From a bacterium (GTDB lineage: Bacteria > Verrucomicrobiota > Verrucomicrobiia > Limisphaerales > RI-55), in the NCBI GenBank assembly GCA_016124235.1, contig WGOC01000017.1, positions 290,967 to 354,966 on the forward strand: a stretch of 64,000 bases of DNA. Direction: 5' to 3'. Below are positions 671 to 15,099 of the stretch, piece by piece. Under the pieces are notes generated by a model. That model saw nothing but the letters and a program-made list of their open reading frames with translations. It made no database searches and was not told the DNA's origin. Numbering within the stretch: position 1 is the stretch's first letter; every line of letters begins with the position of its first letter. The position numbers were made by a program, and so were the translations under genes.

Positions 671-1654
671 TTATTGTTTGTCTAGTGATCCAGGCACATA
701 TCCGACGCGCTCGTAAATATCCGTCAATGGCACTTCCGCCCCATCGCGGCGTTTGCTTTCGTCTGCCGCTTCCATGAAAGCAAAGATCTCGATCGTCTCC
801 GCGGCGGCGAACGGCACTTCGCGGGTCTGGAAGAACTTCACTGCTGCGACAACCAACGGCGCGTAACCGTCATACGCGCCGACATCCATCTCGCCTTTCT
901 CACCTTTGGCATGGCCGCTATAGCCCTTCGACTCGACGTACGTGCCGGTGCGCCCGCCGGACCACGTGCCGGTGACCACGAGTTCGCCGGCGGAATTGGT
1001 GCTGCGCTTCACGCTTTCGCATCCGGTGCCCATCACCGTGAACAATGATTCCACACCGTGGACGGCGTACCAGAACATGTCCGGATGACTTGGCTCAACG
1101 TGATACGGACTGCTCGTCTGCGCGCTTAATACCTTGCCGATGGCGCCACTGTGAACGGCCTGCGTGTTTTTTCCGTAACGCAAAGATGACGCACTGAAGA
1201 CGGGAACGTTGTGTTCTTTTGCCAGTTTAAAAATCGCAATCACGTCACCGAGCGAACCGGCCATCGGTTTGTCGATGTAGATTGGCTTTCCGGCCTGAAT
1301 AACCGGGATCGCCTGCCACAGATGCGGCCGTCCATCGACACTTTCCAGCATCACGGCATCAACGTGCTGGCACATTTCCTCAATCGTCGGATAGAGCGTC
1401 ACGCCGTACTTTTCGGTGAGCTCCTTGGTGTAGCCCTCGATTCTCGATGCGCTTGATTCGATGTCCGGACTGCCGCCCTTGAACGCCGCGACCACACGTG
1501 CGCCGGCAACGTGATCCTTTTGCGAGGCGTCGTTCAGTATCTTGGTAAAAGCGCTGACGTGCGAGGTATCGAGTCCGATCATGCCGATGCGCAGATCGGC
1601 CGCGGACGTCGTCAGCGTGAGAGCGAAGAACGCAGCAAGAATGTGTTTGGGCAT
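671..1654 (-). CDS. Gfo/Idh/MocA-family NAD(P)-dependent oxidoreductase with N-terminal signal peptide
   Basis: N-terminus MPKHILAAFFALTLTTSAADLRIGMIGLDTSH shows a signal peptide followed by a Rossmann GxGxxG-like motif. Overall it resembles the Gfo/Idh/MocA fold. ATG start at 1654. Confidence 0.7.
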   Translation of the reverse strand: MPKHILAAFFALTLTTSAADLRIGMIGLDTSHVSAFTKILNDASQKDHVAGARVVAAFKGGSPDIESSASRIEGYTKELTEKYGVTLYPTIEEMCQHVDAVMLESVDGRPHLWQAIPVIQAGKPIYIDKPMAGSLGDVIAIFKLAKEHNVPVFSASSLRYGKNTQAVHSGAIGKVLSAQTSSPYHVEPSHPDMFWYAVHGVESLFTVMGTGCESVKRSTNSAGELVVTGTWSGGRTGTYVESKGYSGHAKGEKGEMDVGAYDGYAPLVVAAVKFFQTREVPFAAAETIEIFAFMEAADESKRRDGAEVPLTDIYERVGYVPGSLDKQ

Positions 1655-1760
1655 GCGTCTGTTGTCGCTTTACGACGCACGCAAGGCAAGAGCAGAGGCT
1701 GCGTTGAACGCAGATTCAAATTGCTACCGAACAACGACTGTCGCCGGCGTGTGGACCAGC

Positions 1761-2555
1761 TCAGTGGCGTGGATCCGGCACGTCAGTGGGCAACCCCTCG
1801 GCCTCGATGGCCTCGGCAAATTTCCACTGGAAGAGACGGGTCTTGCCGATACCCCGAATTTCGTGAACCACCTCATTGAAATCGTTGGCCTTCAACGCGG
1901 CCTCGATTTCAGTCTTTTTATTCAACGGCAACGCATTGAAGGAAACGGTCACGCCGTTCGGGCGCGACAGGCTCTCCAAGCGAGCGGCCATATTAATTGT
2001 GCCACCACAGTAGTCCCGGTAGCGGAAGAAATTCGGATTAGTTTTGTCGCGGTAGAGCAACCGTTGAAAGGAACCGATCGCGATTCCAATTCCAACGTTG
2101 TATTTTTCCGGTGCGAAGTCCGCGGAGACTTCGTAGAAATTTTTCACGACCTCCTGGCCCACGCACGCCAGGCCGGTGATTTCGTCGACAGTGATGTCGG
2201 TGATCGAACCCTGTTCAGCAATCCAAATCAGCATCAAGCCATCCCCGAGTTCCTTGGCAAACGTAGTGTAACGATCCTTGGCATTAGCTTTCAGCGATTC
2301 AGCTGAGAGATGTTGGCTCAGAACGCGGCGGAAGCACGCCAGCAGGCTGATGGCGTAATCCGAGTTGGCGTCCATGTACGAGGAAAAGTCCCGAATGTCC
2401 GCAAACATGACGATCCCGTTGTGCAGCTCCGCCTTGATGTACTCGTCTTCGAGGGTCGGAAATTTGGAAACGGGCGCAGGTTTTTCCCCGTCGCCATTCA
2501 AATCCACCCGTGATTTTGCGGGCGGAACAAGGGTCGTCTGTCCGAAATTGCTCAT
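1761..2555 (-). CDS. Class III adenylate/guanylate cyclase catalytic-domain protein
   Basis: Motifs VMFADIRDFSSYMD and GGTINMAARLESLS are hallmarks of class III nucleotidyl cyclases. Confidence 0.65.
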   Translation of the reverse strand: MSNFGQTTLVPPAKSRVDLNGDGEKPAPVSKFPTLEDEYIKAELHNGIVMFADIRDFSSYMDANSDYAISLLACFRRVLSQHLSAESLKANAKDRYTTFAKELGDGLMLIWIAEQGSITDITVDEITGLACVGQEVVKNFYEVSADFAPEKYNVGIGIAIGSFQRLLYRDKTNPNFFRYRDYCGGTINMAARLESLSRPNGVTVSFNALPLNKKTEIEAALKANDFNEVVHEIRGIGKTRLFQWKFAEAIEAEGLPTDVPDPRH

Positions 2556-2650
2556 AAAATCGATCGCACCTGCAGAAAACTTAGCACGTGCAATGCCGAG
2601 ACACGGAATCGCATTCGGGTCGGCGGACTTTTCAGGTCGCCCCGGCGCAA

Positions 2651-3700
2651 TTAATTGCCCGAAACGTGATTGGTCGAGTTGGAGGAAAGTATCGGCAGCC
2701 GAGAAAGTTCGCCGGCCAGAACTCTGGTGAAATGCTCGGCCCCACTCGGATTTAGATGATACACGCTGGCGAAATAGCCGTTCGGCAATCGCACCGGCAA
2801 ATTCGTGAGCAAGTAATCGGCGTGCACTGATTGACTAAATTCACGGAGCAATTGGTCTCGACGGTCTTTGAACGAGGCGGCGATCTGTGAATCCGGCAAC
2901 GGTGTGATGCCGACCGCCAATTTGGGTCCCGCCGGGATGCGTGCACGAAGCTCTGCCGCTTCAAGTTTCACCGCGTCGGTAATAACATAGTGTGAATCCC
3001 GCGATTTATTCAATGGGTTGTAGGAACCGTACTCAACCATCGAACCGTTATGCTTCGGCAGATATCCACGCAAATGATATGCGTGCCCATAAAAGAGTGA
3101 AGCATTGCCGTAGAGCGTCATCGGAACCAAATGACCCGCTATCCGATCCTTCGCAATATCGAGCGCCAGCCATTCTTGCATTGGCGTCGCTTCACTACCG
3201 ATCGATCGACCGGCCAACAAATTGTGCCAAAGCCGCTGGTGGGGCGGACTCATGTTCGCGTTCTGCAATTCCTGCGGCGTGACCAGTAACACCACCAACT
3301 TCACCTGCCCTGGATGGTGTTTGATGAATTCGCCCGCGGCATCGCCATAGATGTCCATCCCGATGCCCATGAACATGCCCTGGTTGAGGACTTCGTTGCC
3401 GTCGGGCAGCAACCTGGTCAGCAACGCTGCCTGAACGTCGATCCCGCTGGTCGAATCACCGATGATGATCACGTTGGCGTCGGAGGGTGCGCGCGACATG
3501 TCATAACGTCGCCGCATGAGGACTTCGTCGGGACTCTCCACCGGCGCGGCAACGGGAAGCCAACCGGCCAGACTTAAGAAATGGAGCAACAAAACAATCG
3601 CCGCAACCCCAAGCAACGTCGGCGCAAATACCCGCACCAATTCACCAGCCTTGAATTGAAGTTCATGACTCGTCGCTGGTGTTGAAGGACGGCTGTTCAT
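2651..3700 (-). CDS. Membrane-anchored SGNH/AlgJ-AlgX/DltD-like protein, partner of the upstream MBOAT
   Basis: It has an N-terminal transmembrane helix and an IIIGDSTSG (GDS-like) motif. It lies directly downstream of the MBOAT gene on the same strand. The ATG at 3700 follows the TTG used by the ORF track. Confidence 0.5.
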   Translation of the reverse strand: MNSRPSTPATSHELQFKAGELVRVFAPTLLGVAAIVLLLHFLSLAGWLPVAAPVESPDEVLMRRRYDMSRAPSDANVIIIGDSTSGIDVQAALLTRLLPDGNEVLNQGMFMGIGMDIYGDAAGEFIKHHPGQVKLVVLLVTPQELQNANMSPPHQRLWHNLLAGRSIGSEATPMQEWLALDIAKDRIAGHLVPMTLYGNASLFYGHAYHLRGYLPKHNGSMVEYGSYNPLNKSRDSHYVITDAVKLEAAELRARIPAGPKLAVGITPLPDSQIAASFKDRRDQLLREFSQSVHADYLLTNLPVRLPNGYFASVYHLNPSGAEHFTRVLAGELSRLPILSSNSTNHVSGN

Positions 3701-3835
3701 CAATTTGCTCGGCCGGCATCACCAAACTTTAAGATGTGTGCACCGTTCCTTGCAGACCTTTCACGGTCGGCGATTTCGCTCATCCGCGCAATCGCATCTA
3801 CCACCAGTACCGAAATGGAATTCAACGTTCTCATT

Positions 3836-5290
3836 CTAGAATTGAAAATAGATGAACGCCGGGGCTTCGCGTTGCCAGAATAGAATGATCGAATAGATCA
3901 ACGCGGCCTGCAACAAACCGCGCGCCCATCGTGGAAGCCGCATCGCCGCCTCCAGGTCGCCCGTTCGGCATTGCCAAATTTGCATCGCCAGAAGCGGTAC
4001 TGAAAGCACGCACAATTCGCGGAACATCACGCCCGCCCAAACCGGCGGATTCCAATTCGCCAGCGAGGCCGTCAGCGTCAGAACTTGCTCGGCCGAGTTC
4101 GCGCGGAAAAGCAACCAGCCATACAGCGTGAACATCATCGTGAGCAGCCAAGCCAGCCAGCCCGGCATGGCGAATCGACTTCCATGATCGGAAAGCCGGG
4201 ACTCTTGCCCGCTTTCGCCCCGTGAAGCAGGCACCCGTTTGCCCACAATGTTTTCACTCCAGAAGCGGTTCACGATTAGACCAATCGCCTGCCAGAGTCC
4301 CCACGCCAGAAAGTTCCAGGCGGCGCCATGCCACAGGCCGCCTAGCAACATTACGATCATTAGGTTCAGATAAGTTCGGCCGGCCGCGATCCGGTTGCCG
4401 CCAAGCGGCAGGTAGAGGTAGTCCCGCAGCCAGGTGGAAAGGCTGATGTGCCAGCGCCGCCAGAAATCCTGCACGCTGGTCGCGAAATACGGCAGATTGA
4501 AATTCACCATCAGATCAAATCCTAGAATGCGCGCAAGGCCTCGAGCCATGTCCGTATAGCCGGAAAAATCACAGTAGATTTGGAACGCAAAGGCTGTGGT
4601 CGCAATCAACGTCTGGCTGGCCTCGGGTTCAATGATTCGAAAGACCGGATCCACGATGTGCGAAAAGCCATCAGCCAGAACCACTTTTTTGAACATGCCC
4701 CAAATGAACAGCCAGACTCCGGACTCCACCATGGAAAGCGTGATCGTCAGCTTGCGCGCCATTTGCGGCAAAAGATGCGCGGCGCGTTCAATGGGACCCG
4801 CCACCAGTTGCGGGAAGAACGACACGTACGCCATGAACTGCATCAAGTTTCGCGTCGCCGGAATCTGGCCCCGATACACATCAATCGTGTAGCTCAACGT
4901 CTGGAAGGTGTAAAACGAGATCCCCACCGGCAGCACAAATTGCAGGCCCGTCCATTGAACATCGACCCCGAATTGAGCGAGCAACAATCGCGTGCTTTCG
5001 CGAAAAAAATCGAAGTATTTGAAAAAGAACAGAACGCCGAGATTGGTGACCAGACTGACCAGCAGCAACGAACGCCGCGCTCGAAATCGATCCATCGCGA
5101 GCGCCACGAGATAGTCAACGACGCTCGAGAAAAGCAGCAGCGCCGTGAACCGGTAATCCCACCAAGCGTAAAAGATGTAGCTCGCGACGACAATCAACCC
5201 GTTGCGGGCAGCCAGACGATCACGGACCACATACCACGCCAGCAAAAAGACCCCGAAGAAGACCAGGAAGTCGGTTGAATTGAAGAGCAT
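3836..5290 (-). CDS. MBOAT-family membrane O-acyltransferase (AlgI/DltB-like)
   Basis: Multi-transmembrane protein whose N-terminus MLFNSTDFLVFFGVFLLAWYVV resembles AlgI. It carries the conserved His motif FWRRWHISLSTWLRDYLYLPLGGNR. Confidence 0.85.
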   Translation of the reverse strand: MLFNSTDFLVFFGVFLLAWYVVRDRLAARNGLIVVASYIFYAWWDYRFTALLLFSSVVDYLVALAMDRFRARRSLLLVSLVTNLGVLFFFKYFDFFRESTRLLLAQFGVDVQWTGLQFVLPVGISFYTFQTLSYTIDVYRGQIPATRNLMQFMAYVSFFPQLVAGPIERAAHLLPQMARKLTITLSMVESGVWLFIWGMFKKVVLADGFSHIVDPVFRIIEPEASQTLIATTAFAFQIYCDFSGYTDMARGLARILGFDLMVNFNLPYFATSVQDFWRRWHISLSTWLRDYLYLPLGGNRIAAGRTYLNLMIVMLLGGLWHGAAWNFLAWGLWQAIGLIVNRFWSENIVGKRVPASRGESGQESRLSDHGSRFAMPGWLAWLLTMMFTLYGWLLFRANSAEQVLTLTASLANWNPPVWAGVMFRELCVLSVPLLAMQIWQCRTGDLEAAMRLPRWARGLLQAALIYSIILFWQREAPAFIYFQF

Positions 5291-5365
5291 GGCGGCGCGT
5301 GGGAACGCGATGATTTAGCACCAATGCCACGCAGCCTTCAAGATTCTCAATTTAGCTGGGCGCAA

Positions 5366-6556
5366 CTATTGGAGTTCCTTGAGAACATCATCCAGTCCAC
5401 CGGCGACCGGTTCGATTTCGATCCGACCACCGGAATCATTTGATGCTCTTTCAGGTGTTTTGCGCGGTGCCTTGGGAACATCCGATCGCAACGGCGGGAG
5501 TTTCACCAGGCCTGGCCGTTCCTCGGAAACCTCAACTGCTGGCGAGCCCGCTTTCGGAACGTGCCAGTCACTCTTTTTGGCCATCCACGCTTGGTAACGG
5601 GCAAACGTCCACATCCCGGCTTCGGCGCCAGTCTCCATCACGGACGAAATCTTGAAAAAATCCCGGCTGCGGATGTGCGCTTTCACCGGATTGGTCGGGC
5701 GCAGAATTTCCAGCTCCGGCAACGTGATGTTGAGATCCGCGCGATAACGCAATCGTTGGCAGACGACTCCCACCAAACAATCGGCGACCTGCGCGGCAAT
5801 GCTGTTTTGAATGTCCGCCGGGAACGCACCGATCACCCGTTGCAGTGCCTCAACACAGCTCGACGAATGGACCGTGGCCAATACTAGGTGGCCCGTTTCC
5901 GCCGCGCTCAAGGTCAACCGCATCGTCTCGGGATCACGCATTTCGCCGACCATCAGCACATCCGGATCTTCACGCAGCGAATCCAACAGACCCTGCTCAA
6001 ACGATGGTGTGTCGCGGCCAACTTCGCGTTGACGGATGAAGGCGTTCTTCGGGCGAAAGACATATTCGATCGGGCTTTCCAGCGTGAGGACATGGCGCGC
6101 TTCCGCCTGATTCAATTCCTGGATCAACGCCGCCATCGTCGAGGATTTGCCGCTGCCCGTCGGCCCGCTCACCAGGATCAAACCGTGCGGCAATTGAACC
6201 AACTCCTTGAGGGAGGGATGCAGGTTCAGCGTCTGCAAGGTCGCTTCGAACGAACTCAGCAAACGAATGGCAAAACCAATTCCGCGCGATGATTGAAACA
6301 CGTTGACCCGGCAACGCACGCCCGCGATGCGTCGCGAACCATCGAACGAGCGTCGTTGCACAAACTCATTCCACGACTCCTCACCAATCAGACGGCGGGC
6401 AAGACCCAGCAGCAGTTGACCGTCAATCGGCGAGCCCTGTGTCAACAACCGACCCTGCACGCGCACGGCCGGCGGCAAGTCCGGCTCCAGATGAAGATCA
6501 CTCGCGCCCTGTGCGGCGGCGGCACTTACAAATTCTTCCAAAGTCTGCGTTTCCAT
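5366..6556 (-). CDS. pilT: Type IV pilus retraction ATPase PilT-family protein
   Basis: Walker A GPTGSGKSST and near-collinear similarity to PilT (ASDLHL, LVLATVHSSS, REDPDVLMVGEMRD). It has a roughly 60-aa C-terminal extension. Confidence 0.85.
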   Translation of the reverse strand: METQTLEEFVSAAAAQGASDLHLEPDLPPAVRVQGRLLTQGSPIDGQLLLGLARRLIGEESWNEFVQRRSFDGSRRIAGVRCRVNVFQSSRGIGFAIRLLSSFEATLQTLNLHPSLKELVQLPHGLILVSGPTGSGKSSTMAALIQELNQAEARHVLTLESPIEYVFRPKNAFIRQREVGRDTPSFEQGLLDSLREDPDVLMVGEMRDPETMRLTLSAAETGHLVLATVHSSSCVEALQRVIGAFPADIQNSIAAQVADCLVGVVCQRLRYRADLNITLPELEILRPTNPVKAHIRSRDFFKISSVMETGAEAGMWTFARYQAWMAKKSDWHVPKAGSPAVEVSEERPGLVKLPPLRSDVPKAPRKTPERASNDSGGRIEIEPVAGGLDDVLKELQ

Positions 6557-6558
6557 GA

Positions 6559-7026
6559 TCAGCGCAATTCAATGACGTCGCCCGCCTCCACCGGCGGATC
6601 AACACCCCGCAGAAGCTCCGTCGGATTCACCGGAATGATCCGCCCCTTGCGGCGAATATTGATCGCCATCGGATCCTGCGACGAGGTGTAAACGGCTTCA
6701 ACAATTGCTTTGGCCACCGTCAAACCCTCATGCCACGGAATGGCGGGCTTCCGCACCGGGCCACGAACAAACACGTGGGTCATATTCATTTCGGCCGCTT
6801 TCTGGCCCTGCTGAAGGCCCGCTTCAAAGGCCCGACGCGCCTGCTCTTGTGCAGCTTGCTTGCTCACGCAACCAGGCAGCAAGCCAACGCATAAACCGAC
6901 CGCAATGATACCAACCGCCACCTTCAAGACTCCGCCACCCGCGCGGCCGACCCTTTTCAATCCGCATAAGCACGAAGCTGGCAAACCACGCGGCGGCGTC
7001 ATTATTCGATGTTCAATAGCCGGCAT
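6559..7026 (-). CDS. Lipoprotein with an SLBB-like (soluble-ligand-binding beta-grasp) C-terminal region
   Basis: Lipobox LLPGC lies behind a hydrophobic stretch. The C-terminal GDVIEL motif is typical of SLBB domains. Its start is 2 bp upstream of pilT. Confidence 0.4.
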   Translation of the reverse strand: MPAIEHRIMTPPRGLPASCLCGLKRVGRAGGGVLKVAVGIIAVGLCVGLLPGCVSKQAAQEQARRAFEAGLQQGQKAAEMNMTHVFVRGPVRKPAIPWHEGLTVAKAIVEAVYTSSQDPMAINIRRKGRIIPVNPTELLRGVDPPVEAGDVIELR

Positions 7027-7029
7027 TTC

Positions 7030-7512
7030 TCAGCAACTGGTCGGCACGCCCTGGATGACTTTCACGCAATGCGGAATCGCGCCAACGACGAAACTTAAAC
7101 ACTCGACCGCCCCACTTGGTTTCCCGGGAAGCGCGATCACCAGGGCCGAGTCAACGACGGCCGCGAGATTGCGCGACAGAATGGCGTTCTTGGTAATCTT
7201 GAGCGATTCCATCCGCATCGCTTCACCAAAACCCGGCAACTCGCGCGACGCAATCTCGCGGATGGCCTCCGGCGTCACATCTCGGGGAGCGACGCCGGTT
7301 CCACCGGTGGTCAGCACCAGACTGCAACCCTGGTTAACGAATTCGCGAATCGCGCGCTGGATGTCGCGCTTTTCATCCGGCACCAGACTCTCGCCGGTGA
7401 TACTCCACCCGTAGCCAGTGGCGGCCTCCTTCAAAGCCGGCCCGCCCAGGTCGTCATATTCCCCCTTCGACGCGCGATCGGAAACGGTGACAATTCCCAC
7501 ATTGATTTGCAT
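7030..7512 (-). CDS. mogA: Molybdopterin adenylyltransferase MogA/MoaB family
   Basis: MQINVGIVTVSDRASKGEYDD...LVLTTGGTGVAPRDVTPEA is the classic MogA fold signature. Confidence 0.8.
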   Translation of the reverse strand: MQINVGIVTVSDRASKGEYDDLGGPALKEAATGYGWSITGESLVPDEKRDIQRAIREFVNQGCSLVLTTGGTGVAPRDVTPEAIREIASRELPGFGEAMRMESLKITKNAILSRNLAAVVDSALVIALPGKPSGAVECLSFVVGAIPHCVKVIQGVPTSC

Positions 7513-7579
7513 GGCGGCAGAGTGCTTGAGAACGGCCGCGAGGTGAAGCGCGAAAGCGACGACGGGACGACGACGAAAA

Positions 7580-7608
7580 CTTTACCGTTTCTTTACTGTT
7601 TCTTTACC
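7580..7608. repeat. Three tandem roughly 11-bp direct repeats (CTTTACCGTTT / CTTTACTGTTT / CTTTACC) in the mogA-lipoprotein-pilT upstream region
   Basis: Seen directly in the sequence. The repeats sit about 70 bp upstream of the mogA start and are followed by the inverted repeat AAAACTgAGTTTT. Confidence 0.4.
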
Positions 7609-8158
7609 AAAACTGAGTTTTGGAATGTGCCACCGCAGAGATTGGGGCAAATTGGGAAAGGTGACACGATGGATTCCGAAGACAGCTGCGCGGGCTTACA
7701 CCGCAACGACTCCCGCTCCTCCGCGGAGCGGCGAACAGGGTCGAGGAGAGGCGGTCTCTTAAACACTCCCAGCTCCTCAATCTTCTCCCCGCGCCGGCGG
7801 GGCGAGGACGACCGGTACGCGCTCCCAATGAATCTTTGGCGTGTGCGCAGCAAGGTGAGCGGTTTGTCGCACCGGAAGCCAATTTTCTGACAAGCACTCA
7901 TGTGAGTGAAACTAGCCGGGACGGTTGAGGGCCGCACGGGCATTTTGAGGCAACGCGAAGAAAGTCATGCAAGTTCGCGAAGACTTGCACGCCGACGTGG
8001 AGCACTCATGCCAGCTGCCCGAACTCCTGCTGGACCAGCGGCGTCGCAGACACTCCACAGCGCGGAATGGATCGATTTCGAAAATAACATCTGTATCGTT
8101 CGCTCGGGCACTCCCTGCCCCAGCAAGCGCACTGTCCGAGACCATTGCATCGTTCCGG

Positions 8159-8362
8159 TTACGGCAGAAACTCTACCTTGAAAAAGCGATAGTCGTCGGC
8201 GCCCCAGCCTTCGATCACCACATCCAAAAAGGCACTGCCCGGCGTCACCAACACGTTCAATATCGGTTCCCAGGTTCCGAAGTCGGTCGTTGTGTACACC
8301 TGATAGCTCTCACCCGCCACGCCGTTCAGCGGGAAGTGAAACGCTCCGTCAACGACCCTCAC
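8159..8362 (-). CDS. Orphan 67-aa ORF, probably a gene remnant (beta-strand-rich C-terminal fragment)
   Basis: YQVYTTTDFGTWEPILNVLVTPGSAFLDVVIEGW...RFFKVEFLP looks like the tail of a larger secreted protein. It is isolated within a 1-kb noncoding stretch. Confidence 0.2.
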   Translation of the reverse strand: MRVVDGAFHFPLNGVAGESYQVYTTTDFGTWEPILNVLVTPGSAFLDVVIEGWGADDYRFFKVEFLP

Positions 8363-8532
8363 GTTACTGATGCTGGGGCGACCAAGATATCACGAAAACG
8401 CTTCGACTGACTGGTTGAACGCGCTCAGTCCGCCAATTCGTGCCGCCAGACGATCAGCACACATTCGATTTCAACTGCAACTCCGCGCTTGCACGGGCCG
8501 GGGACGTTCCCTACTTTGCCGCCCTGCTTTGG

Positions 8533-8619
8533 GCCGGTGTGGCGGAATTGGCAGACGCGCTAGACTCAAAATCTGGTGTCCTTGCGGACGTGGGGGTTCG
8601 AGCCCCTCCACCGGTACCA
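8533..8619 (+). tRNA. tRNA-Leu (anticodon CAA), type II with long variable arm and encoded CCA
   Basis: GCCGGTGTGGCGGAATTGGCAGACGCGCTAGACTCAAAATCTGGTGTCCTTGCGGACGTGGGGGTTCGAGCCCCTCCACCGGTACCA is near-collinear with E. coli tRNA-Leu. Acceptor stem is GCCGGTG/CACCGGT, anticodon loop is CT-CAA-AA, and the T-loop is GGTTCGAGCC. Confidence 0.9.
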
Positions 8620-8654
8620 ACCTGAATACCCCCTTCTTTTGTTGTGACTTGACC

Positions 8655-8700
8655 CATAAAATGGCCGCATCGGCCTCTTTATGCCCCCGGCCATTTTATG
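8655..8700. repeat. Perfect 13-bp inverted repeat (CATAAAATGGCCG ... CGGCCATTTTATG) with 20-nt loop, 36 bp downstream of tRNA-Leu
   Basis: Seen directly in the sequence. A second 7-bp inverted repeat (ACATTTC/GAAATGT, 8708-8735) follows. Confidence 0.5.
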
Positions 8701-9238
8701 CCTCGAGACATTTCGTCGCTATTTAAGAGAAATGTGGCCAAGAATCGCCAAACACTCGGCCAAGTTTTGGTTCAACTTCAATGGCATTCCCGATTTGGGT
8801 TGAAGCCGAATGAATTGGGGGCAGCAGAGACTGACGTGAAATCGAGGAGTTCAACTCGATTGGGTCAGAACGACATTAGTGCAGATTGGCCTCCGGGTCG
8901 AAGCATCGCGTGGTCAACTATCCCCGACCCGGCCCAGTTCCTCCCGGGCCCGGATCCATTCCTGCCTTGCCACCGCATCCCGCAAGTCGAGATAGCTCGG
9001 CAGTTCTGCCCGAACGCGGCCGGCGCTTGGATACTCAGCCCAGTTCCTCGACCGCAAGGCTCAAGGCCGAAGAGTCTCGTTCTCGGTGGAACTTGCTCGC
9101 ATGTTAAAGCCTCCAGCCCAATGGATGATTCGAAGTGGGGTATCTTCATTGTCGGAGTAGTGGCTCAGTAACAATAGATGTCATCAACTGGGGTGCTGGA
9201 TGACTGCCTCGCCCTCTGGGGCCGCGGCGTGATTCGGC

Positions 9239-10270
9239 TTGTACGTGCCTGTAGTCGGTGCCTCCTGGTATCGAAAGCTCGCCACGGCCGATTCAAATGT
9301 CATACTGCCGCCGGAGATGTCGCATCAGGCGGACAACGTTTCAGCCGGAACCCAGGTGGTTGCGCTGATCGAGGTGCGGGGCACCAACAATTCGTTGGTA
9401 CACCCGCGCGGTGCGGTCGGAGTGGTCACCCGCACACCGGCCGTCGCAGGGGAAAAGTTTCTCATACGATTCCCGGATGGCTTTGAAGGGACGTTCGAAC
9501 GTGATCAATTTGATGTGCTCAAGCATTTCAAAGATCGATTGGGACCGGTCTCCAATGGCACTCCGGCCTTTGATCTCGAATCCTGCATCATCTACCGCTG
9601 CGTGATCGGCTCGCGGGCCTATGGACTCGACACCGACGAATCGGACACCGACCGCCGAGGCGTTTACCTCGCGCCCGCCGATCTCCAGTGGTCGCTTTTT
9701 GGTGCGCCGGAACAATTTGAGGACCACGCCACGCAAAGTTGTTATTGGGAGCTGCAGAAATTTCTGACCATGGCCCTCAAGGCCAACCCGAACATTCTCG
9801 AATGTCTCTGGTCGCCGATGGTCGAGAAAGTCACCGACCTGGGAATGGAGCTTTTGACCATGCGCGAAGCGTTCTTGAGTCAGATGATTTTTCAGACGTT
9901 CAACGGTTACGCCGTGAGCCAGTTCAAGAAGATCGAGCAGGATTTGCGAAACTCGGGCCAGATCAAATGGAAACATGCAATGCACCTACTGCGTCTGCTG
10001 CTCACGGGCGCGGCCACATTGAGAACCGGAACTGTTCCGGTGCGCGTCGAGGCACACCGTGACCGCTTGCTCGCCGTCAAACGTGGCGAATTCGCATGGC
10101 CCGAAGTAGACGCCTGGCGCAGAGAACTCCACCGCGATTTCGAACGCGCCTTGGCCGAAACGAAATTGCCTGAACGCCCAGACTACGACGCGGCAAATAG
10201 GATCTTGATTAAAACGCGGCGAGAGATGGTAACAGCAAAAACGAACTACCACGATTACCCATGCGAATAG
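9239..10270 (+). CDS. Pol-beta superfamily nucleotidyltransferase (RlaP/PF10127-like), paralog 1, with N-terminal extension
   Basis: GSRAYGLDTDESDTDRRGVYLAP fits the GS-x(9-13)-DxD nucleotidyltransferase motif, and the C-terminal LPERPD motif is shared with paralog 2. The track start is TTG 9239, with the first ATG at 9317. The stop TAG 10268-10270 overlaps the start of the next gene. Confidence 0.7.
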   Translation: MYVPVVGASWYRKLATADSNVILPPEMSHQADNVSAGTQVVALIEVRGTNNSLVHPRGAVGVVTRTPAVAGEKFLIRFPDGFEGTFERDQFDVLKHFKDRLGPVSNGTPAFDLESCIIYRCVIGSRAYGLDTDESDTDRRGVYLAPADLQWSLFGAPEQFEDHATQSCYWELQKFLTMALKANPNILECLWSPMVEKVTDLGMELLTMREAFLSQMIFQTFNGYAVSQFKKIEQDLRNSGQIKWKHAMHLLRLLLTGAATLRTGTVPVRVEAHRDRLLAVKRGEFAWPEVDAWRRELHRDFERALAETKLPERPDYDAANRILIKTRREMVTAKTNYHDYPCE

Positions 10271-12207
10271 TCAACCTTAAGATAAACAGCTGGCGCAATT
10301 TCAGGGGTATTTCGTTGGAAATTCCAGAGGGCTCCAAACTGGTATGCTTGGTTGGAGAGAATGGGGCTGGGAAGAGCAATATTCTGGAATTAATTTCCGC
10401 GGCTGCGCATTACTTCGGCATTTCACCTGGCATCCAGATAGCGCGTGGAAATCCTTTCGATGAAGACCACGATGTTGAGATTGTTATCAAGTTTCCGGAA
10501 GCGAGAGAAATTCTGTTAGGCGAGGAATATTGCCAAACAATCATCGACAATTACCCGACATGGGACGGAACATTGCGCCTTGAGAGCTCAAGAGGAACAG
10601 GCACTCGAAACCAGACATTGGTGTATGCGGGCGGTATCGAAAATCCAGAAGTCGCTCGTTCGTTTGCTATAAGCAATCTTATCCCTCAAATCCGACAGAG
10701 AAAGGATACGTTTTACCTCTTTCTTGACGCAGACCGAGCCTACCCTCCGACTAAACTGCGCCGTGAACATTTTGCAGAAGGACTGATGCGTGCGTGGGAT
10801 TCGATCGAATGGCGTAAGAACAAGGCGTTTTTGCCGACACGCCAACTTTACGAAGAATGGATTAATTTTATGCTTTCGGTCGAAGGGCAGGAGGCAACTC
10901 AACATTTTCAAAAGCTTAGAAAAGCGCAAGAACTTTGCAATCCTGCACCGCTATTTACAGACCACTTCCTTTCATTCAAAAACTCTTTGAGAAAGGTGCT
11001 ACAACATTTGCAATTCGAGGGAGTTGATCAACAGCACCAAACAATCCTATTCGATACCGCTGCTGGGCCACTTAACTACAATCAATTGAGCGGCGGTGAA
11101 CGCGAGATCGCATTTCTGATCGGTCAAATCGAAAGATTTCAACTTCGAAGAGGCCTATTGCTAGTTGACGAACCTGAGTTGCATTTGAATTCCGACCTTA
11201 TACGTATTTGGATATCGTTCTTACGAGATACAGTCGAAGACGGGCAAACCTGGATCGCAACTCATTCGTTGGAGGCAGTCGAGGTCGCCGGCAGGATTTC
11301 AACATTTGTTTTGGAACGTTCGGAAACGAGACGAGTTGTTGATTGTGCCAGCTCGTTGGAAAATCGACCGATTCTGAACATTCTTGCCGGCGCCTTAGGC
11401 TCGCCCGCCTTTTCTCTCACAAGATTGCGGTTCGTATTCGTCGAGGGAGACCGCGGCAGAGACGAAAGAGAGCGCTTCCACAAACTTTGCCAGAATGCTC
11501 CGGAAAACCGATTCATGGAAGGAGGGGGCTGCAAAGAAGTGATCGGTAGAGTGAGAGTGGTGAGCGAACTAGCGGCTGAAACCGAAAGTCAGATACGTGT
11601 CGGAGGAATTCTCGATCGGGATTTCCGAACGCAAAGCCAGCTCGACGCGCTCACCAAAGACCTGCCAGTATTCGTTTTGCCGTGCCACGAAGTCGAAAAT
11701 TTATTCCTTCACCCAACTGGTTTGACACAACTTCAAAAAAGAATGGGAGGCACCGAATCTGTGGAGGGATTGCTTCAATTGGCCAGTGACCGGTTTGCAG
11801 GCGGTTGGATATTCCAGCATGCATACACCCAGACCAATGATCTGCCCGAACCGAGCAGAACTCTAAAAGACGGCTTTTGGAATTCTAGCTGGGCTGTTTT
11901 CTCACAGGACATCGAAAGCAAAGTAATGTCACTCATCGCGCTACAACCGGCACTTAATTCGAATGACCGAACGCGCCTCAAGACTGCCTTGGAAATAGCT
12001 GCAAGAATTTATAAAAGAGTCCGACTTGCTGACACCCTCTGGAAAGAATGTTTAGGCAAACAAACATTGGCCGAAATTTCCCGCAAGCTAGGCTTTCGAG
12101 GGCCAGAGATTGTCGAGGGATGCGTGCTGCAAATGTGGGCCAATGATGAAGTGCAAATTCCGGCCGAAGTGGAATCGGTTCGAGATTTTGTAAGCACGCT
12201 CCAATGA
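10261..12207 (+). CDS. OLD-family/PARIS (AriA-AriB fusion)-like protein: N-terminal ABC/AAA_15-21 ATPase plus C-terminal TOPRIM (DUF4435-like) nuclease
   Basis: Walker A GENGAGKSN; ABC signature-like LSGGEREIAF; Walker B LLLVDEPELHLNSD; H-loop IATHS. The C-terminus carries FVFVEGDRGRDE, ILDRDF and HEVENLF, which are TOPRIM E/DxD-type motifs. The gene is about 45% GC against about 60% for its flanks. Confidence 0.8.
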   Translation: MRIVNLKINSWRNFRGISLEIPEGSKLVCLVGENGAGKSNILELISAAAHYFGISPGIQIARGNPFDEDHDVEIVIKFPEAREILLGEEYCQTIIDNYPTWDGTLRLESSRGTGTRNQTLVYAGGIENPEVARSFAISNLIPQIRQRKDTFYLFLDADRAYPPTKLRREHFAEGLMRAWDSIEWRKNKAFLPTRQLYEEWINFMLSVEGQEATQHFQKLRKAQELCNPAPLFTDHFLSFKNSLRKVLQHLQFEGVDQQHQTILFDTAAGPLNYNQLSGGEREIAFLIGQIERFQLRRGLLLVDEPELHLNSDLIRIWISFLRDTVEDGQTWIATHSLEAVEVAGRISTFVLERSETRRVVDCASSLENRPILNILAGALGSPAFSLTRLRFVFVEGDRGRDERERFHKLCQNAPENRFMEGGGCKEVIGRVRVVSELAAETESQIRVGGILDRDFRTQSQLDALTKDLPVFVLPCHEVENLFLHPTGLTQLQKRMGGTESVEGLLQLASDRFAGGWIFQHAYTQTNDLPEPSRTLKDGFWNSSWAVFSQDIESKVMSLIALQPALNSNDRTRLKTALEIAARIYKRVRLADTLWKECLGKQTLAEISRKLGFRGPEIVEGCVLQMWANDEVQIPAEVESVRDFVSTLQ

Positions 12208-12311
12208 TCGACTCCAGTCTCGACCGCATCGTTGCGACGCAGCCTTACGCGCTGCTCTTTGCCACGATCAGCGCCTCGTATTTGACGGGAGGTTTATCAC
12301 CGGACGATTGA
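12204..12311 (+). pseudogene. Degenerate 5' remnant of an RlaP-like nucleotidyltransferase gene; its ATG overlaps the upstream TGA stop (ATGA)
   Basis: It encodes MIDSSLDRIVATQPYALLFATISASYLTGGLSPDD*, which aligns with the start of paralog 2 (MTIDTRLHSIVAAQPYPLLFATVSGAHLYGFPSPDSD). The GS...DxD catalytic residues are lost and it ends after 35 codons. Confidence 0.55.
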
Positions 12312-12355
12312 GCTGCAAGCTGGACGGCCTCACTCCGGCAGCATAACTTTTTGCC

Positions 12356-12571
12356 ATGCTTGACTGGAGCCAGTGCGAACAGGTGGAACGTCACCCGGAC
12401 GTCGTGAGTGGCGCGTGGGTGTTCAAGGGCACGCGCGTTCCGGTGGCGGCGTTTTTTGAAAACTTGGAAGAGGGTGCCTCCGTCGAGGATTCCCTCGAAT
12501 GGTTTCCCGGCGTTTCCCGTGAACAGGTCGTCGCAGTACTTTCCCACGCGGAACACCGTCTCGTGGCGTGA
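12356..12571 (+). CDS. DUF433-family small protein (putative antitoxin)
   Basis: GAWVFKGTRVPV is the DUF433 signature. It is 71 aa and its stop overlaps the start of the next gene (GTGA). Confidence 0.7.
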   Translation: MLDWSQCEQVERHPDVVSGAWVFKGTRVPVAAFFENLEEGASVEDSLEWFPGVSREQVVAVLSHAEHRLVA

Positions 12572-12885
12572 GAATTCTTTTCGATCAGGGCGTGCTGGTG
12601 CCGCTCCGGAGGGAGCTTCCCGAGCACGGCATTTCCACTGCGTTTGAACAGAGATGGTCGGCCTTGAGCAACGGCCTGTTGCTAAGTTCGGCCGAGGAGG
12701 CCGGCTTCGAATCGATGATCACCACCGACAAGAACCTGAGGTATCAGCAAAATCTGGCGGATCGTCGAGTTGCCATCCTGGTACTGCCGACAACGCGCTG
12801 GCCGGTGATCGAGCGACACACGCTGGTTGTAAAAGAGGCGTTGAAAAACCTCCGCTCGGGCGAGTATCGCGAACTATCCTGGTGA
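12568..12885 (+). CDS. DUF5615-family PIN-like protein (putative toxin of the DUF433/DUF5615 pair)
   Basis: MRILFDQGVLVPLRRELPEHGI with an acidic TTDKNL core, 105 aa, GTG start. Together with DUF433 this is the canonical pairing. Confidence 0.65.
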   Translation: MRILFDQGVLVPLRRELPEHGISTAFEQRWSALSNGLLLSSAEEAGFESMITTDKNLRYQQNLADRRVAILVLPTTRWPVIERHTLVVKEALKNLRSGEYRELSW

Positions 12886-12887
12886 TC

Positions 12888-13667
12888 ATGACCATCGACA
12901 CACGCCTTCACAGCATCGTTGCTGCGCAGCCGTATCCGCTGCTGTTTGCCACCGTCAGCGGCGCGCACCTGTATGGTTTTCCGTCCCCGGACTCTGATTT
13001 TGATTTGCGTGGCGCGCATGTGTTGCCGCTCGAAAAGGTCGTCGGTCTGGAGGTGAAGAATGAGACCCTAGAGGACAGTCGGATTATTGATGGTCTGGAC
13101 ATGGACATTGTGAGCCATGACGTGCGGAAGTTCTTTGGCCTGCTCCTGAAGAAGAACGGCTATGTGCTCGAACAACTGTTTTCGCCGCTCATCGTTCACA
13201 CCACGCCTGAGCACGAGGAGTTAAAGGCCCTTGCGGGCGGCCACAAAAAGCAGACGGGCGTAATCACTAAACATCATGCCCATCACTACTTCGGATTCGC
13301 GGAAACGCAGTGGAATTTGTTTTTGAAGGAGTCGCCGCGGCGGGTGAAGCCGCTGCTCTATGTTTATCGTGTCCTGCTCACCGGCGTTCACTTGATGCGC
13401 ACTGGGGTCATCGAAGCCAACCTCGTGACGTTGAATGGGGACTTCCAGCTGCCATACATCGCCGAGTTGATTGAGCGCAAAACGACCGGCGAGAACACGA
13501 CCTTGTCCGACGCCGATCTGTCGTTTCATGAGTCGGAATACCAGCGGCTGCGAGGTCAGTTGCAATCCGCCCACGAAGCCAGCCAACTTCCCGAGCGACC
13601 GGACGAGTCGACGCGGAATGGCTTAAACGATTTGCTCGTACGGATACGTTTGAGTTCCTGTCGCTAG
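12888..13667 (+). CDS. Pol-beta superfamily nucleotidyltransferase (RlaP/PF10127-like), paralog 2
   Basis: MTIDTRLHSIVAAQPYPLLFATVSGAHLYGFPSPDSDFDLRGAHV carries GS-x10-DxD, plus the C-terminal LPERPD motif. The ATG at 12888 lies 3 nt after the DUF5615 stop. The track ORF from 12654 includes a spurious leader. Confidence 0.75.
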   Translation: MTIDTRLHSIVAAQPYPLLFATVSGAHLYGFPSPDSDFDLRGAHVLPLEKVVGLEVKNETLEDSRIIDGLDMDIVSHDVRKFFGLLLKKNGYVLEQLFSPLIVHTTPEHEELKALAGGHKKQTGVITKHHAHHYFGFAETQWNLFLKESPRRVKPLLYVYRVLLTGVHLMRTGVIEANLVTLNGDFQLPYIAELIERKTTGENTTLSDADLSFHESEYQRLRGQLQSAHEASQLPERPDESTRNGLNDLLVRIRLSSCR

Positions 13668-13740
13668 CGGAGGCCAATTCACAAAACCGGAGGGAAAAGG
13701 CGGGCTTCTCATCCCGGATGATTTGGACCAGATTGGGTCC

Positions 13741-15099
13741 ATGCCACACATGAACATTTCAGGTATTCGCCGTTACGCGGTTCAAGGCGTCCTGCTGGCC
13801 TCGATTGGAATGCCCGCGTTCCATACTCGAGCCGATGACTGGCCGCAATGGCTGGGTCCGGAGCGGGACGGCGTCTGGCGCGAATCGGGGATTGTTGAAA
13901 CGTTGCCTGTCGGGGGCCTGACTTATCGGTGGCGCATCCCGATCGGTAGCGGCTATTCCGGGCCGGCTGTAGCGGGCGGTCGGGTCTTCGTGATGGATCG
14001 TCAGCTCGCTGCTGGAAATGCCAATCCTCAGAACGCCTTTTCCCGGGGACAGATTCCCGGCACAGAGCGGGTGCTTTGCTTGAACGAGGCAGATGGCAAA
14101 ATCCTCTGGCAACACACTTACGATTGCCCTTACACGGTCAGCTACGCAGCGGGTCCACGCGCCACACCGGCAGTGTCCGATGGCCGCGTTTACACTTTGG
14201 GTGCTGAAGGCAATTTGTTTTGCCTCAATGTCGAGGACGGCAAAGTAATCTGGTCCCATGATTTCAAAAAGGAATTCGGAATCAAGACACCGACGTGGGG
14301 CTTCGCCGGGCACCCGCTTGTGGACGGAAAAAAGTTGATCTGCCTTGCTGGTGGCAACGGCAGCGTGGCGGTTGCGTTCGACAAGGTGACCGGCCGGGAA
14401 TTGTGGCGGGCGTTGAGCGCCAAGGAACCCGGTTACGCACCGCCCATGATTTATGAATTCGATGGCAAACGGCAGTTGATCATCTGGGATCCCGAGTCGG
14501 TGAACGCGCTCGACCCGGAAACGGGGAAAGTTCTGTGGACCTACGAGCTTGAACCGCCGGTGCGACAGGGCATGGCGATTCCCACTCCGCGAAAGGTGGG
14601 CGATGAATTATTCCTCACGTCGTTTTACAACGGGTCGTTGCTCTTGCGAATCGGCCCCGATGGAGCGTCAAAAGTGTGGGCCAGCAAAAAGGTGAGCGAG
14701 ACCGACACCGACGGACTGCACAGTGTGTTTGCGCAGCCATTCATCGAGGACGGTCACATTTACGGACCGGGCAGCTATGGTCAGTATCGCTGTCTCGACC
14801 TGGAGACGGGCGAACGTTTGTGGGAAACCTTCGCGCCGACAAGCGGCAAGTCCGAACGCTGGGGCAACGCGTTCACTGTGGAGCACGGCGACCGTTGTTT
14901 CCTGTTCAGTGAAACAGGTGATCTGATCATCGCGAAGTTGAGCGCGGAGAAATACCAGGAATTGAGCCGGGCTCACCTGATCGATCCGGTGAACCACGAT
15001 CCTGGCCGACCGGTCGTGTGGTCGCACCCGGCCTTTGCCGACAAATGCGTCTTTGTGCGAAATGATCAGGAGATCGTCTGCGTGTCTTTGGCAAAGTAG
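13741..15099 (+). CDS. Secreted PQQ-like (BamB/YVTN-type) beta-propeller repeat protein
   Basis: A signal peptide is followed by DDWPQWLGPERDGVW and repeated G..LW/W.. motifs. The track start is TTG 13723. Confidence 0.65.
   Translation: MPHMNISGIRRYAVQGVLLASIGMPAFHTRADDWPQWLGPERDGVWRESGIVETLPVGGLTYRWRIPIGSGYSGPAVAGGRVFVMDRQLAAGNANPQNAFSRGQIPGTERVLCLNEADGKILWQHTYDCPYTVSYAAGPRATPAVSDGRVYTLGAEGNLFCLNVEDGKVIWSHDFKKEFGIKTPTWGFAGHPLVDGKKLICLAGGNGSVAVAFDKVTGRELWRALSAKEPGYAPPMIYEFDGKRQLIIWDPESVNALDPETGKVLWTYELEPPVRQGMAIPTPRKVGDELFLTSFYNGSLLLRIGPDGASKVWASKKVSETDTDGLHSVFAQPFIEDGHIYGPGSYGQYRCLDLETGERLWETFAPTSGKSERWGNAFTVEHGDRCFLFSETGDLIIAKLSAEKYQELSRAHLIDPVNHDPGRPVVWSHPAFADKCVFVRNDQEIVCVSLAK

Follow-up and report, generated by a model that had tools for sequence, protein, structure and literature searches.

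This study concerns a block of about 5 kb (positions 8,620 to 13,667) in a 64,000-nucleotide (nt) stretch of DNA from a bacterium of the Verrucomicrobiota (GenBank assembly GCA_016124235.1, contig WGOC01000017.1, positions 290,967 to 354,966 of the forward strand), hereafter called the window. The block carries two genes for RlaP-family nucleotidyltransferases (RlaP1 and RlaP2) and, between them, a gene for a fused ABC-ATPase/Toprim protein and a putative toxin-antitoxin pair. The locus is probably an assembly of independent modules, in which a PARIS-like sensor-nuclease and a toxin-antitoxin pair sit as cargo in a slot between the genes of an RlaP RNA-repair pair. All features of the block are located on the plus strand and are as follows (aa, amino acids).

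8533–8619, plus strand: tRNA-Leu(CAA) gene (ARAGORN; Rfam RF00005, 51.3 bits).
8663–8675, plus strand: probable terminator of the tRNA, a short GC-rich hairpin with a T-run behind it (terminator-like consensus match within inverted repeat I3; weak evidence, shuffled sequence giving no fewer such sites).
9317–10270, plus strand: RlaP1, RlaP-family Pol-beta nucleotidyltransferase carrying an additional domain (about 90 aa) at the N-terminus; it frames the slot on the upstream side (PF10127, E = 1e-41).
10261–12207, plus strand: fused ABC-ATPase/DUF4435-Toprim protein, 648 aa, AriAB-like, cargo (Pfam, PADLOC, Foldseek and codon composition).
12204–12311, plus strand: remnant of the RlaP2 N-terminus, 35 codons and then a stop (DNA alignment and tblastn).
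12356–12571, plus strand: DUF433 protein, 71 aa, putative antitoxin (PF04255, E = 4.4e-14).
12568–12885, plus strand: DUF5615-related protein, 105 aa, putative toxin (PF18480 matched by its homologues).
12888–13667, plus strand: RlaP2, RlaP-family nucleotidyltransferase, 259 aa, the downstream frame gene of the slot (PF10127, E = 2e-54).

The gene content given in a preliminary description of the sequence (the tRNA gene, two RlaP genes, the ATPase-Toprim gene, the remnant and the DUF433 and DUF5615-like pair) was confirmed at these positions. The open reading frame (ORF) of RlaP1 opens at 9239, and the ATG at 9317 was taken as the likely true start because the N-termini of the orthologues begin with MSHQ. 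The first 10 nt of the ATPase-Toprim gene are shared with the end of RlaP1, the ATG of the remnant overlaps the stop codon of the ATPase gene (ATGA), and the DUF433 gene and the next ORF share a GTGA overlap. The block had been described as lying immediately 3′ of the tRNA; the tRNA gene is indeed there, but about 700 bp of DNA precede the first gene, with no recognisable feature except the small hairpin directly after the tRNA. This spacer (8620–9316) has no DNA similarity to the other RlaP loci considered below and no ligase remnants, and its ORF gave no Pfam match. The Rfam scan of positions 7900–14000 found nothing besides the tRNA, and terminator-like sites in the region are no more frequent than in shuffled sequence. 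A minus-strand ORF (12245–12556, 103 aa) that runs opposite to the DUF433 gene matched no family and was treated as spurious. The ATPase gene alone is compositionally foreign in the block, with a G+C content at third codon positions (GC3) of 0.478, compared with 0.67–0.71 in the host-like RlaP1, toxin-antitoxin and RlaP2 genes.

The two nucleotidyltransferases belong to the Pol-beta/RlaP type, as had been proposed, scoring 143.8 (RlaP1) and 185.2 bits (RlaP2) against a PF10127 cut-off of 23. The GS...DxD catalytic motif of the Pol-beta fold is kept in both proteins; it reads GSRAYG...DESDTD in the translation of RlaP1 and SGAHLYG..PDSDFD in RlaP2, where SGAHLYGFPSPDSDFD is invariant in the alignment of homologues. 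The two proteins are paralogues with about 25% identity. RlaP2 has at least 8000 significant homologues; the best 120 listed are 73–83% identical, and several of them are named Verrucomicrobia. RlaP1 also possesses an N-terminal extension of about 90 aa (window 9317–9590; MSHQADNVSAGTQVVALIEVRG...FPDGFEGTFERDQ), which lies outside the RlaP profile, is kept in the orthologues and is absent in RlaP2.

To place the pair in its genomic setting, a scan of metagenome contigs with the RlaP2 alignment was used, which returned 80 loci (designated below by L and a number); since these loci were selected by RlaP2 similarity, the frequencies derived from them are indicative and do not represent a genome census. 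Orthologues of RlaP1 (53–80% identical by tblastn) were found in 46 other loci, and wherever the contig extends far enough RlaP1 is located upstream of RlaP2 (58–83% identical) on the same strand. A gene for an RtcB ligase or a Pnkp-type kinase-phosphatase-ligase lies upstream of RlaP1 in 12 loci, and the junction between ligase and RlaP1 is tight in seven of the eight cases measured. Such ligase neighbours were seen in the orthologous loci L014, L016, L020, L021, L028, L039, L057, L068 and L078. The order of genes is RtcB, a 220-aa gene, RtcB, RlaP1 and RlaP2 in L014, where the two RlaP genes abut, and Pnkp, RlaP1, a 1049-aa gene and RlaP2 in L016. Because RtcB or Pnkp genes precede RlaP1 and the junction is tight, the RlaP pair is recognised as the conserved tail of an RNA-repair operon, in a clade that is apparently verrucomicrobial, an assignment that rests on the names of a few homologues.

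The family owes its name to its association with RNA ligase genes, and RlaP adds one or two nucleoside monophosphates to the 3′-hydroxyl (3′-OH) end of RNA, after which a ligase can restore the function of over-damaged tRNA (PMC12776372). Like the RtcB-RlaP-RtcA operon of Pseudomonas and the Pnkp-type operons, the loci described here combine PF10127 enzymes with an intact motif and, in orthologous loci, an RtcB or Pnkp gene directly upstream. They differ in having two divergent RlaP paralogues in tandem with variable cargo between them, and in the window no ligase gene accompanies them. In L068 (1–12142), 13 tRNA genes (960–8126) lie between an RtcB gene and a cargo-free, ATGA-coupled RlaP1-RlaP2 pair (9069–10768), followed by a second RtcB gene (11051–12142), so that a tRNA array is embedded in the RNA-repair operon. 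L082 and L090 have a Pnkp gene but lack RlaP1.

After removal of duplicates, both RlaP genes were found in 47 loci. The gap between them is no longer than 160 bp in 16 loci, in four of which the RlaP1 stop and the RlaP2 start overlap as ATGA, and in the remaining 31 loci it holds 0.4–4.6 kb of cargo. Clustering by blastp sorts the 83 cargo ORFs into 66 groups, and the cargo is almost always different between loci. The cargo includes a SIR2-pAgo fusion (PADLOC pAgo, E = 0), a type IIG restriction-modification (R-M) enzyme, NACHT-like STAND proteins, ankyrin, WD40 and SUKH proteins, a DruA-like protein adjoining an HTH/IrrE protein, a six-gene set with a Thg1-like enzyme, a kinase, an ADP-ribosylglycohydrolase and an R2K ATP-grasp protein, and also a cytidylyltransferase, a YidC homologue and a NADAR protein. 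On contigs where no RlaP1 was detected, the genes directly upstream of RlaP2 encode GajA and GajB, a TIR-like C-terminal fragment, a GAP1/double-GTPase pair and a TCAD9 protein. Many cargo proteins, for example those of 446, 373, 326, 534, 292, 239 and 211 aa, have no family match. The GC content of the cargo was compared with that of the two flanking genes in 30 loci and is below both in most of them.

Loci whose RlaP2 proteins share 88–94% identity mostly differ in their cargo: one has an empty junction and its relative an ATP-grasp gene, another carries SIR2-pAgo and its relative a type IIG R-M enzyme, and a third carries a NACHT protein and its relative a 239-aa protein lacking an assignment. 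This indicates that the turnover is fast. The RlaP1-RlaP2 junction is thus a fast-turnover slot for changing, mostly recognisable defence genes. A conserved recombination site (for instance, attC-like) was not found at the cargo boundaries; the sequences upstream of RlaP2 are unrelated between loci, and an integron-like mechanism was rejected for this reason.

The sole recurrent cargo family is a 211-aa protein with no Pfam or PADLOC match, present in four distinct loci (L020: 9352–9987; L071: 1400–2038; L073: 974–1609; L074: 77–712; L072 duplicates L071) and once accompanied by a cytidylyltransferase-like gene. In the more distant loci L078 (1536–3266) and L082 (1494–3248), the slot holds a YidC-like insertase (60KD_IMP and YidC periplasmic domain), an odd cargo unrelated to defence.

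The first item of cargo in the window is the 648-aa protein, which the preliminary description had characterised as a fused ABC-ATPase/Toprim protein of OLD/PARIS type. The profile searches agree with that: Pfam places it within the AAA_21 (7e-17), AAA_15 (2e-13) and DUF4435 families (PF14491; 2.8e-7, 31 bits against a cut-off of 27), just as it places both nucleotidyltransferases in PF10127. Among 5027 defence-protein profiles of PADLOC, used as single-protein profiles without the system-level rules, the best match is the AriAB model PDLC02981 (E = 4.8e-28), which spans aa 272–624 and profile positions 306–671 of 694, and the next matches are further AriAB and AriA models. The PtuA, GajA and Old models match around the P-loop only. 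The marks of an ABC-ATPase are complete (Walker A, ABC signature, Walker B and H-loop), and in 25 homologues the ATPase residues GENGAGKS (32–39), LSGGE (276–280), D303 and H335 are invariant, as are the Toprim residues E395, D452/D454 and E477/E479. The AlphaFold2 model has a predicted local distance difference test score (pLDDT) of 88, and its best Foldseek matches include the retron Eco8 effector (9lpa_B, 9.7e-12), Thermus OLD (6p74, 2.1e-10) and GajA (8x5i, 8e-10), with PtuA ATPases also among the top matches. The C-terminal 268 aa gave no PDB sequence match at E ≤ 10.

PARIS proteins are sometimes fused into one chain (PMC12409363). The window protein shares with fused AriAB the succession of an ABC-ATPase and a DUF4435-type Toprim domain in one chain of about 650 aa, with the acidic Toprim residues kept, and its relatives nest within type I R-M operons, a frequent setting of PARIS. 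It differs in being remote from AriA and AriB of E. coli, the AriAB profile being matched over part of its length, and its gene is placed inside an RNA-repair operon, not in a phage satellite or an R-M operon. With the OLD family (P2 Old, GajA and the retron Eco8 effector) it has in common the two-domain architecture and the resemblance of the model to the Eco8 effector, 6p74 and GajA. However, its scores with the Old and GajA models of PADLOC are far below those with AriAB and cover the N-terminal P-loop region only, the Toprim region is of the DUF4435 type, and neither a GajB-like nor a retron partner gene is present. The protein is thus a divergent new member of a known defence kind, and its gene is very probably a defence gene.

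At E ≤ 1e-5, 619 homologues of the 648-aa protein were found; the best 120 listed are nearly all 617–675 aa long and 43–49% identical, and their hosts include Chloroflexota, Gammaproteobacteria and Mycobacterium. Its closest homologues were examined in seven independent contexts (L001, L003, L009, L013, L098, L099 and L100), and none is accompanied by RlaP. The homologue is located within a type I R-M operon in L001, adjoins such an operon in L100, is found alone on a Mycobacterium chromosome in L003, lies between NERD and HNH genes in L009 and stands alone in L013, L098 and L099. The absence of RlaP from all seven contexts, together with the deviating GC3, indicates that the ATPase-Toprim gene is a foreign, self-contained cassette. 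A scan of genome contigs with the ATPase-Toprim alignment gave three irrelevant loci among the matches listed, the patterns being generic P-loop and Walker B sequences.

Two of these contexts are dense defence islands: L001 (919–13167) encodes an Mrr-like protein, HsdR, HsdS, the homologue, Fic, HsdM and an SLFN-like helicase, and L100 (1–11902) encodes HsdM, AbiEii, HsdR, the homologue, a DEAD helicase and McrBC.

These contexts also bear on the proposal of the preliminary description that the arrangement of nucleotidyltransferase, OLD-like protein and nucleotidyltransferase forms a system not recognised before. RlaP1, the ATPase-Toprim protein and RlaP2 would then make up one defence or abortive-infection system, in which, for example, the nuclease cuts tRNA and the nucleotidyltransferases modify or re-heal the ends. 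The 10-nt overlap of the ATPase gene with RlaP1 and its former ATGA coupling to RlaP2, as judged by the remnant, are consistent with such a system. The chemistry would also fit, with RlaP acting at 3′-OH ends of RNA (PMC12776372) and Toprim enzymes of the AriB type probably leaving such ends (PMC12409363). One other locus, L031, has the order RlaP1, another fused ATPase-DUF4435 protein and RlaP2. The conservation of the neighbourhood of nucleotidyltransferase and OLD-like genes, which the preliminary description had named as a check, amounts to this locus, whose ATPase is 25% identical to that of the window, and such co-occurrence is not enough to make the case for a dedicated system. On the other hand, the closest homologues occur without RlaP in all seven contexts, the middle gene is absent in 16 of the 47 RlaP pairs, and the other cargo-bearing loci hold unrelated genes in all but this one case. 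Besides, the foreign codon composition of the ATPase gene is unlike that of both RlaP genes, and the ATPase gene is now followed not by RlaP2 but by a dead remnant and the toxin-antitoxin pair. A dedicated three-gene system is therefore improbable, and the proposal largely fails the refuting test that the preliminary description had itself set.

The remnant behind the ATPase gene sheds light on the history of the block. It reads MIDSSLDRIVATQPYALLFATISASYLTGGLSPDD followed by a stop codon, against MTIDTRLHSIVAAQPYPLLFATVSGAHLYGFPSPDSD at 12888, and its opening MIDSSLDRIVATQPYALLFATISASYL... aligns with MTIDTRLHSIVAAQPYPLLFATVSGAHL... of RlaP2. Flanking 141-nt windows of the DNA alignment between the remnant and the 5′ region of RlaP2 have a mean column identity of 75%, and tblastn gave 61% identity over aa 3–35. 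The remnant is a decayed copy of the RlaP2 N-terminus, the scar of a former order RlaP1-AriAB-RlaP2. It sits directly after the ATPase gene, which was thus formerly coupled on both sides. At present, the coupling to nucleotidyltransferase genes that the preliminary description had reported on both sides stands on the RlaP1 side, with its 10-nt overlap, and not on the 3′ side, where a dead 35-codon remnant takes the place of an intact gene. The toxin-antitoxin pair came later, in an event that also supplied a new 5′ end of RlaP2 downstream of the ATPase gene. A homologue of the 105-aa ORF with 51% identity lies directly upstream of RlaP2 in L059, so a toxin-antitoxin pair joined to RlaP2 exists elsewhere and may have been the donor.

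Scars left by duplication of the flanks were also seen at other loci. In L018 (3971–4813), an N-terminal RlaP2 remnant (MTIDPRLHRIIAAKPYPLLFASIS...) is followed by an ORF for a RAYT/IS200-like transposase (4229–4684), repeated REP-like DNA and then an intact RlaP2. In L058 (6861–10001), RlaP1 continues into a glyoxalase/VOC-like C-terminal extension, after which come a 238-aa ORF, a C-terminal remnant of RlaP1 (8825–9013), a DUF7638/DUF7639 protein and RlaP2, a mirror image of the scar in the window.

The small genes behind the remnant had been read as a DUF433/DUF5615 toxin-antitoxin pair with a PIN-like toxin. The DUF433 assignment holds (52.5 bits with PF04255, cut-off 23.6). The 105-aa protein itself has no Pfam match, DUF5615 included, even at E = 10, but it has more than 1400 homologues, and 17 of the 24 aligned ones, 60–66% identical, match PF18480 (DUF5615). 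Its AlphaFold2 model (pLDDT 88) gave only generic alpha/beta/alpha matches in fold searches, and a PIN fold was not confirmed. The arrangement is that of known DUF433/DUF5615 (PIN-like) pairs, with an overlap between the DUF433 gene and a partner gene of about 105 aa, the homologues of which match PF18480.

The preliminary description also treated the tRNA 3′ end as an insertion point for an island. That all 5 kb arrived as a mobile genomic islet, by integration at the tRNA-Leu 3′ end, is very improbable. The block does begin downstream of tRNA-Leu(CAA), as a few other RlaP loci (L065, L022 and L014) lie downstream of tRNA genes, and the genes that flank the block (PilT-like, MoCF and PQQ) showed no synteny with any other RlaP locus. 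Nevertheless, no integrase or recombinase ORF was found, the ORF of the spacer matching no Pfam family, and the 3′ end of the tRNA is not duplicated: the search for att-like direct repeats of it downstream gave chance-level 14-nt matches only. In composition, the RlaP and toxin-antitoxin genes resemble the host and the ATPase gene alone deviates, and the tRNAs found upstream differ between RlaP loci, most of which have none. The tRNA-Leu(CAA) gene is a neighbour and not demonstrably an integration site.

The reading that most probably accounts for these observations is that of independent modules, with activities (RNA repair, ATPase-Toprim and toxin-antitoxin) predicted from family membership. 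The RlaP pair would repair RNA ends, and its junction takes up foreign genes in the orientation of the operon with near-zero intergenic DNA. By analogy with AriA and AriB, the ATPase-Toprim protein, a single chain, may be held in check until its ATPase part recognises a phage protein; the freed Toprim nuclease would then cut host tRNA, and translation would stop. The toxin-antitoxin pair would be a separate addiction or defence module. The analysis demonstrates the identities of the genes, the conservation of the frame genes, the variable and tightly packed cargo, the scars and the foreign composition of the ATPase gene. We infer what triggers the ATPase-Toprim protein and which RNA it cuts, the route of recombination and the independence of the cargo from RlaP.

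Several observations weigh against this reading. A Toprim tRNase would leave ends with 3′-OH and 5′-phosphate, which is the class of substrates of RlaP, and the L031 slot holds a second AriAB-like protein. The RtcB and Pnkp ligases gave no match anywhere in the 64-kb window, and the counts of loci carry the sampling limit stated above. The relationship of the 648-aa protein to characterised PARIS is remote and holds at the level of profiles, so that the trigger and the target should be regarded as extrapolations; searches of PDB sequences (phmmer and profile) matched PtuA-type, retron and UvrA ATPases and no chain labelled AriA or AriB. The layout of the cargo is also unusual for a defence island: its ORFs are always co-oriented with the RlaP genes, with spacers of 0–60 nt on both sides, and in at least nine unrelated cargos the start ATG overlaps the RlaP1 stop, just as that of RlaP2 does in empty loci. 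The uniform orientation, the ATGA overlaps and the short spacers argue for selection on co-expression of the cargo and leave room for a functional link to RlaP.

Such a link is the essence of another explanation, according to which the RNA-repair operon serves as an expression platform, possibly inducible by RNA damage, and the cargo is co-transcribed and translationally coupled with the RlaP genes. It is a tentative explanation, which we consider rather unlikely. Immune effectors docked there would be activated along with RNA repair, or those that damage RNA would be paired with the means of recovery. Apart from the packing just described, it draws on the lack of sigma-70-like promoter matches inside the block of the window, in a consensus scan that covers this type and not other promoter types, and on the nature of part of the cargo, which represents RNA-end or ADP-ribose chemistry (Thg1, kinase, cytidylyltransferase, R2K ATP-grasp, NADAR and ADP-ribosylglycohydrolase). 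The junction between ligase and RlaP1, which serves as an internal control for the RlaP1-RlaP2 junction, is not variable. However, the tight packing could merely reflect the insertions that are tolerated inside an operon, and much of the cargo (type IIG R-M, SIR2-pAgo, Gabija and NACHT) has no known need of RNA repair. That the junction is a dedicated, translationally coupled docking slot, through which the repair operon controls the expression of immune and RNA-processing genes, is accordingly possible but doubtful. If it is true, a tRNA-cutting PARIS-like effector would be paired with tRNA-healing enzymes, which would make the growth arrest reversible rather than suicidal; alternatively, damage to RNA would itself be the signal that calls up a second line of defence.

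Defence hotspots framed by conserved genes are known, such as the cargo between hsdS and hsdM of type I R-M operons and the hotspots of P2 and P4 prophages. The slot is a variant of this kind: its flanks are conserved, its cargo is variable, of lower GC content and mostly defensive, and close relatives differ in it. It departs from the known hotspots in that the frame consists of RNA-repair enzymes and the cargo is co-oriented, nearly without intergenic DNA and often joined by ATGA, with no integrase or mobility gene accompanying it save the one RAYT-type transposase of L018. The RNA-repair frame and the embedding of the cargo in an operon are new. Few papers in the literature searched mention RlaP or PF10127, and no description of the slot was found in them, the founding paper of Burroughs and Aravind (2016) aside.

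By itself the window is unremarkable: it adds a further divergent PARIS-like protein encoded by a single gene, and a toxin-antitoxin pair. The interest lies in the setting, a pair of RNA-repair nucleotidyltransferases framing a slot with mostly immune genes and many proteins with no assigned function. The slot could serve as an anchor when new defence genes are sought in this phylum, which is poorly studied. The ATGA-coupled layout of the operon also raises the question of whether RNA repair and immunity are co-regulated or mechanistically linked, and such a link between repair and immunity bears on how cells recover from abortive defences that cleave tRNA.

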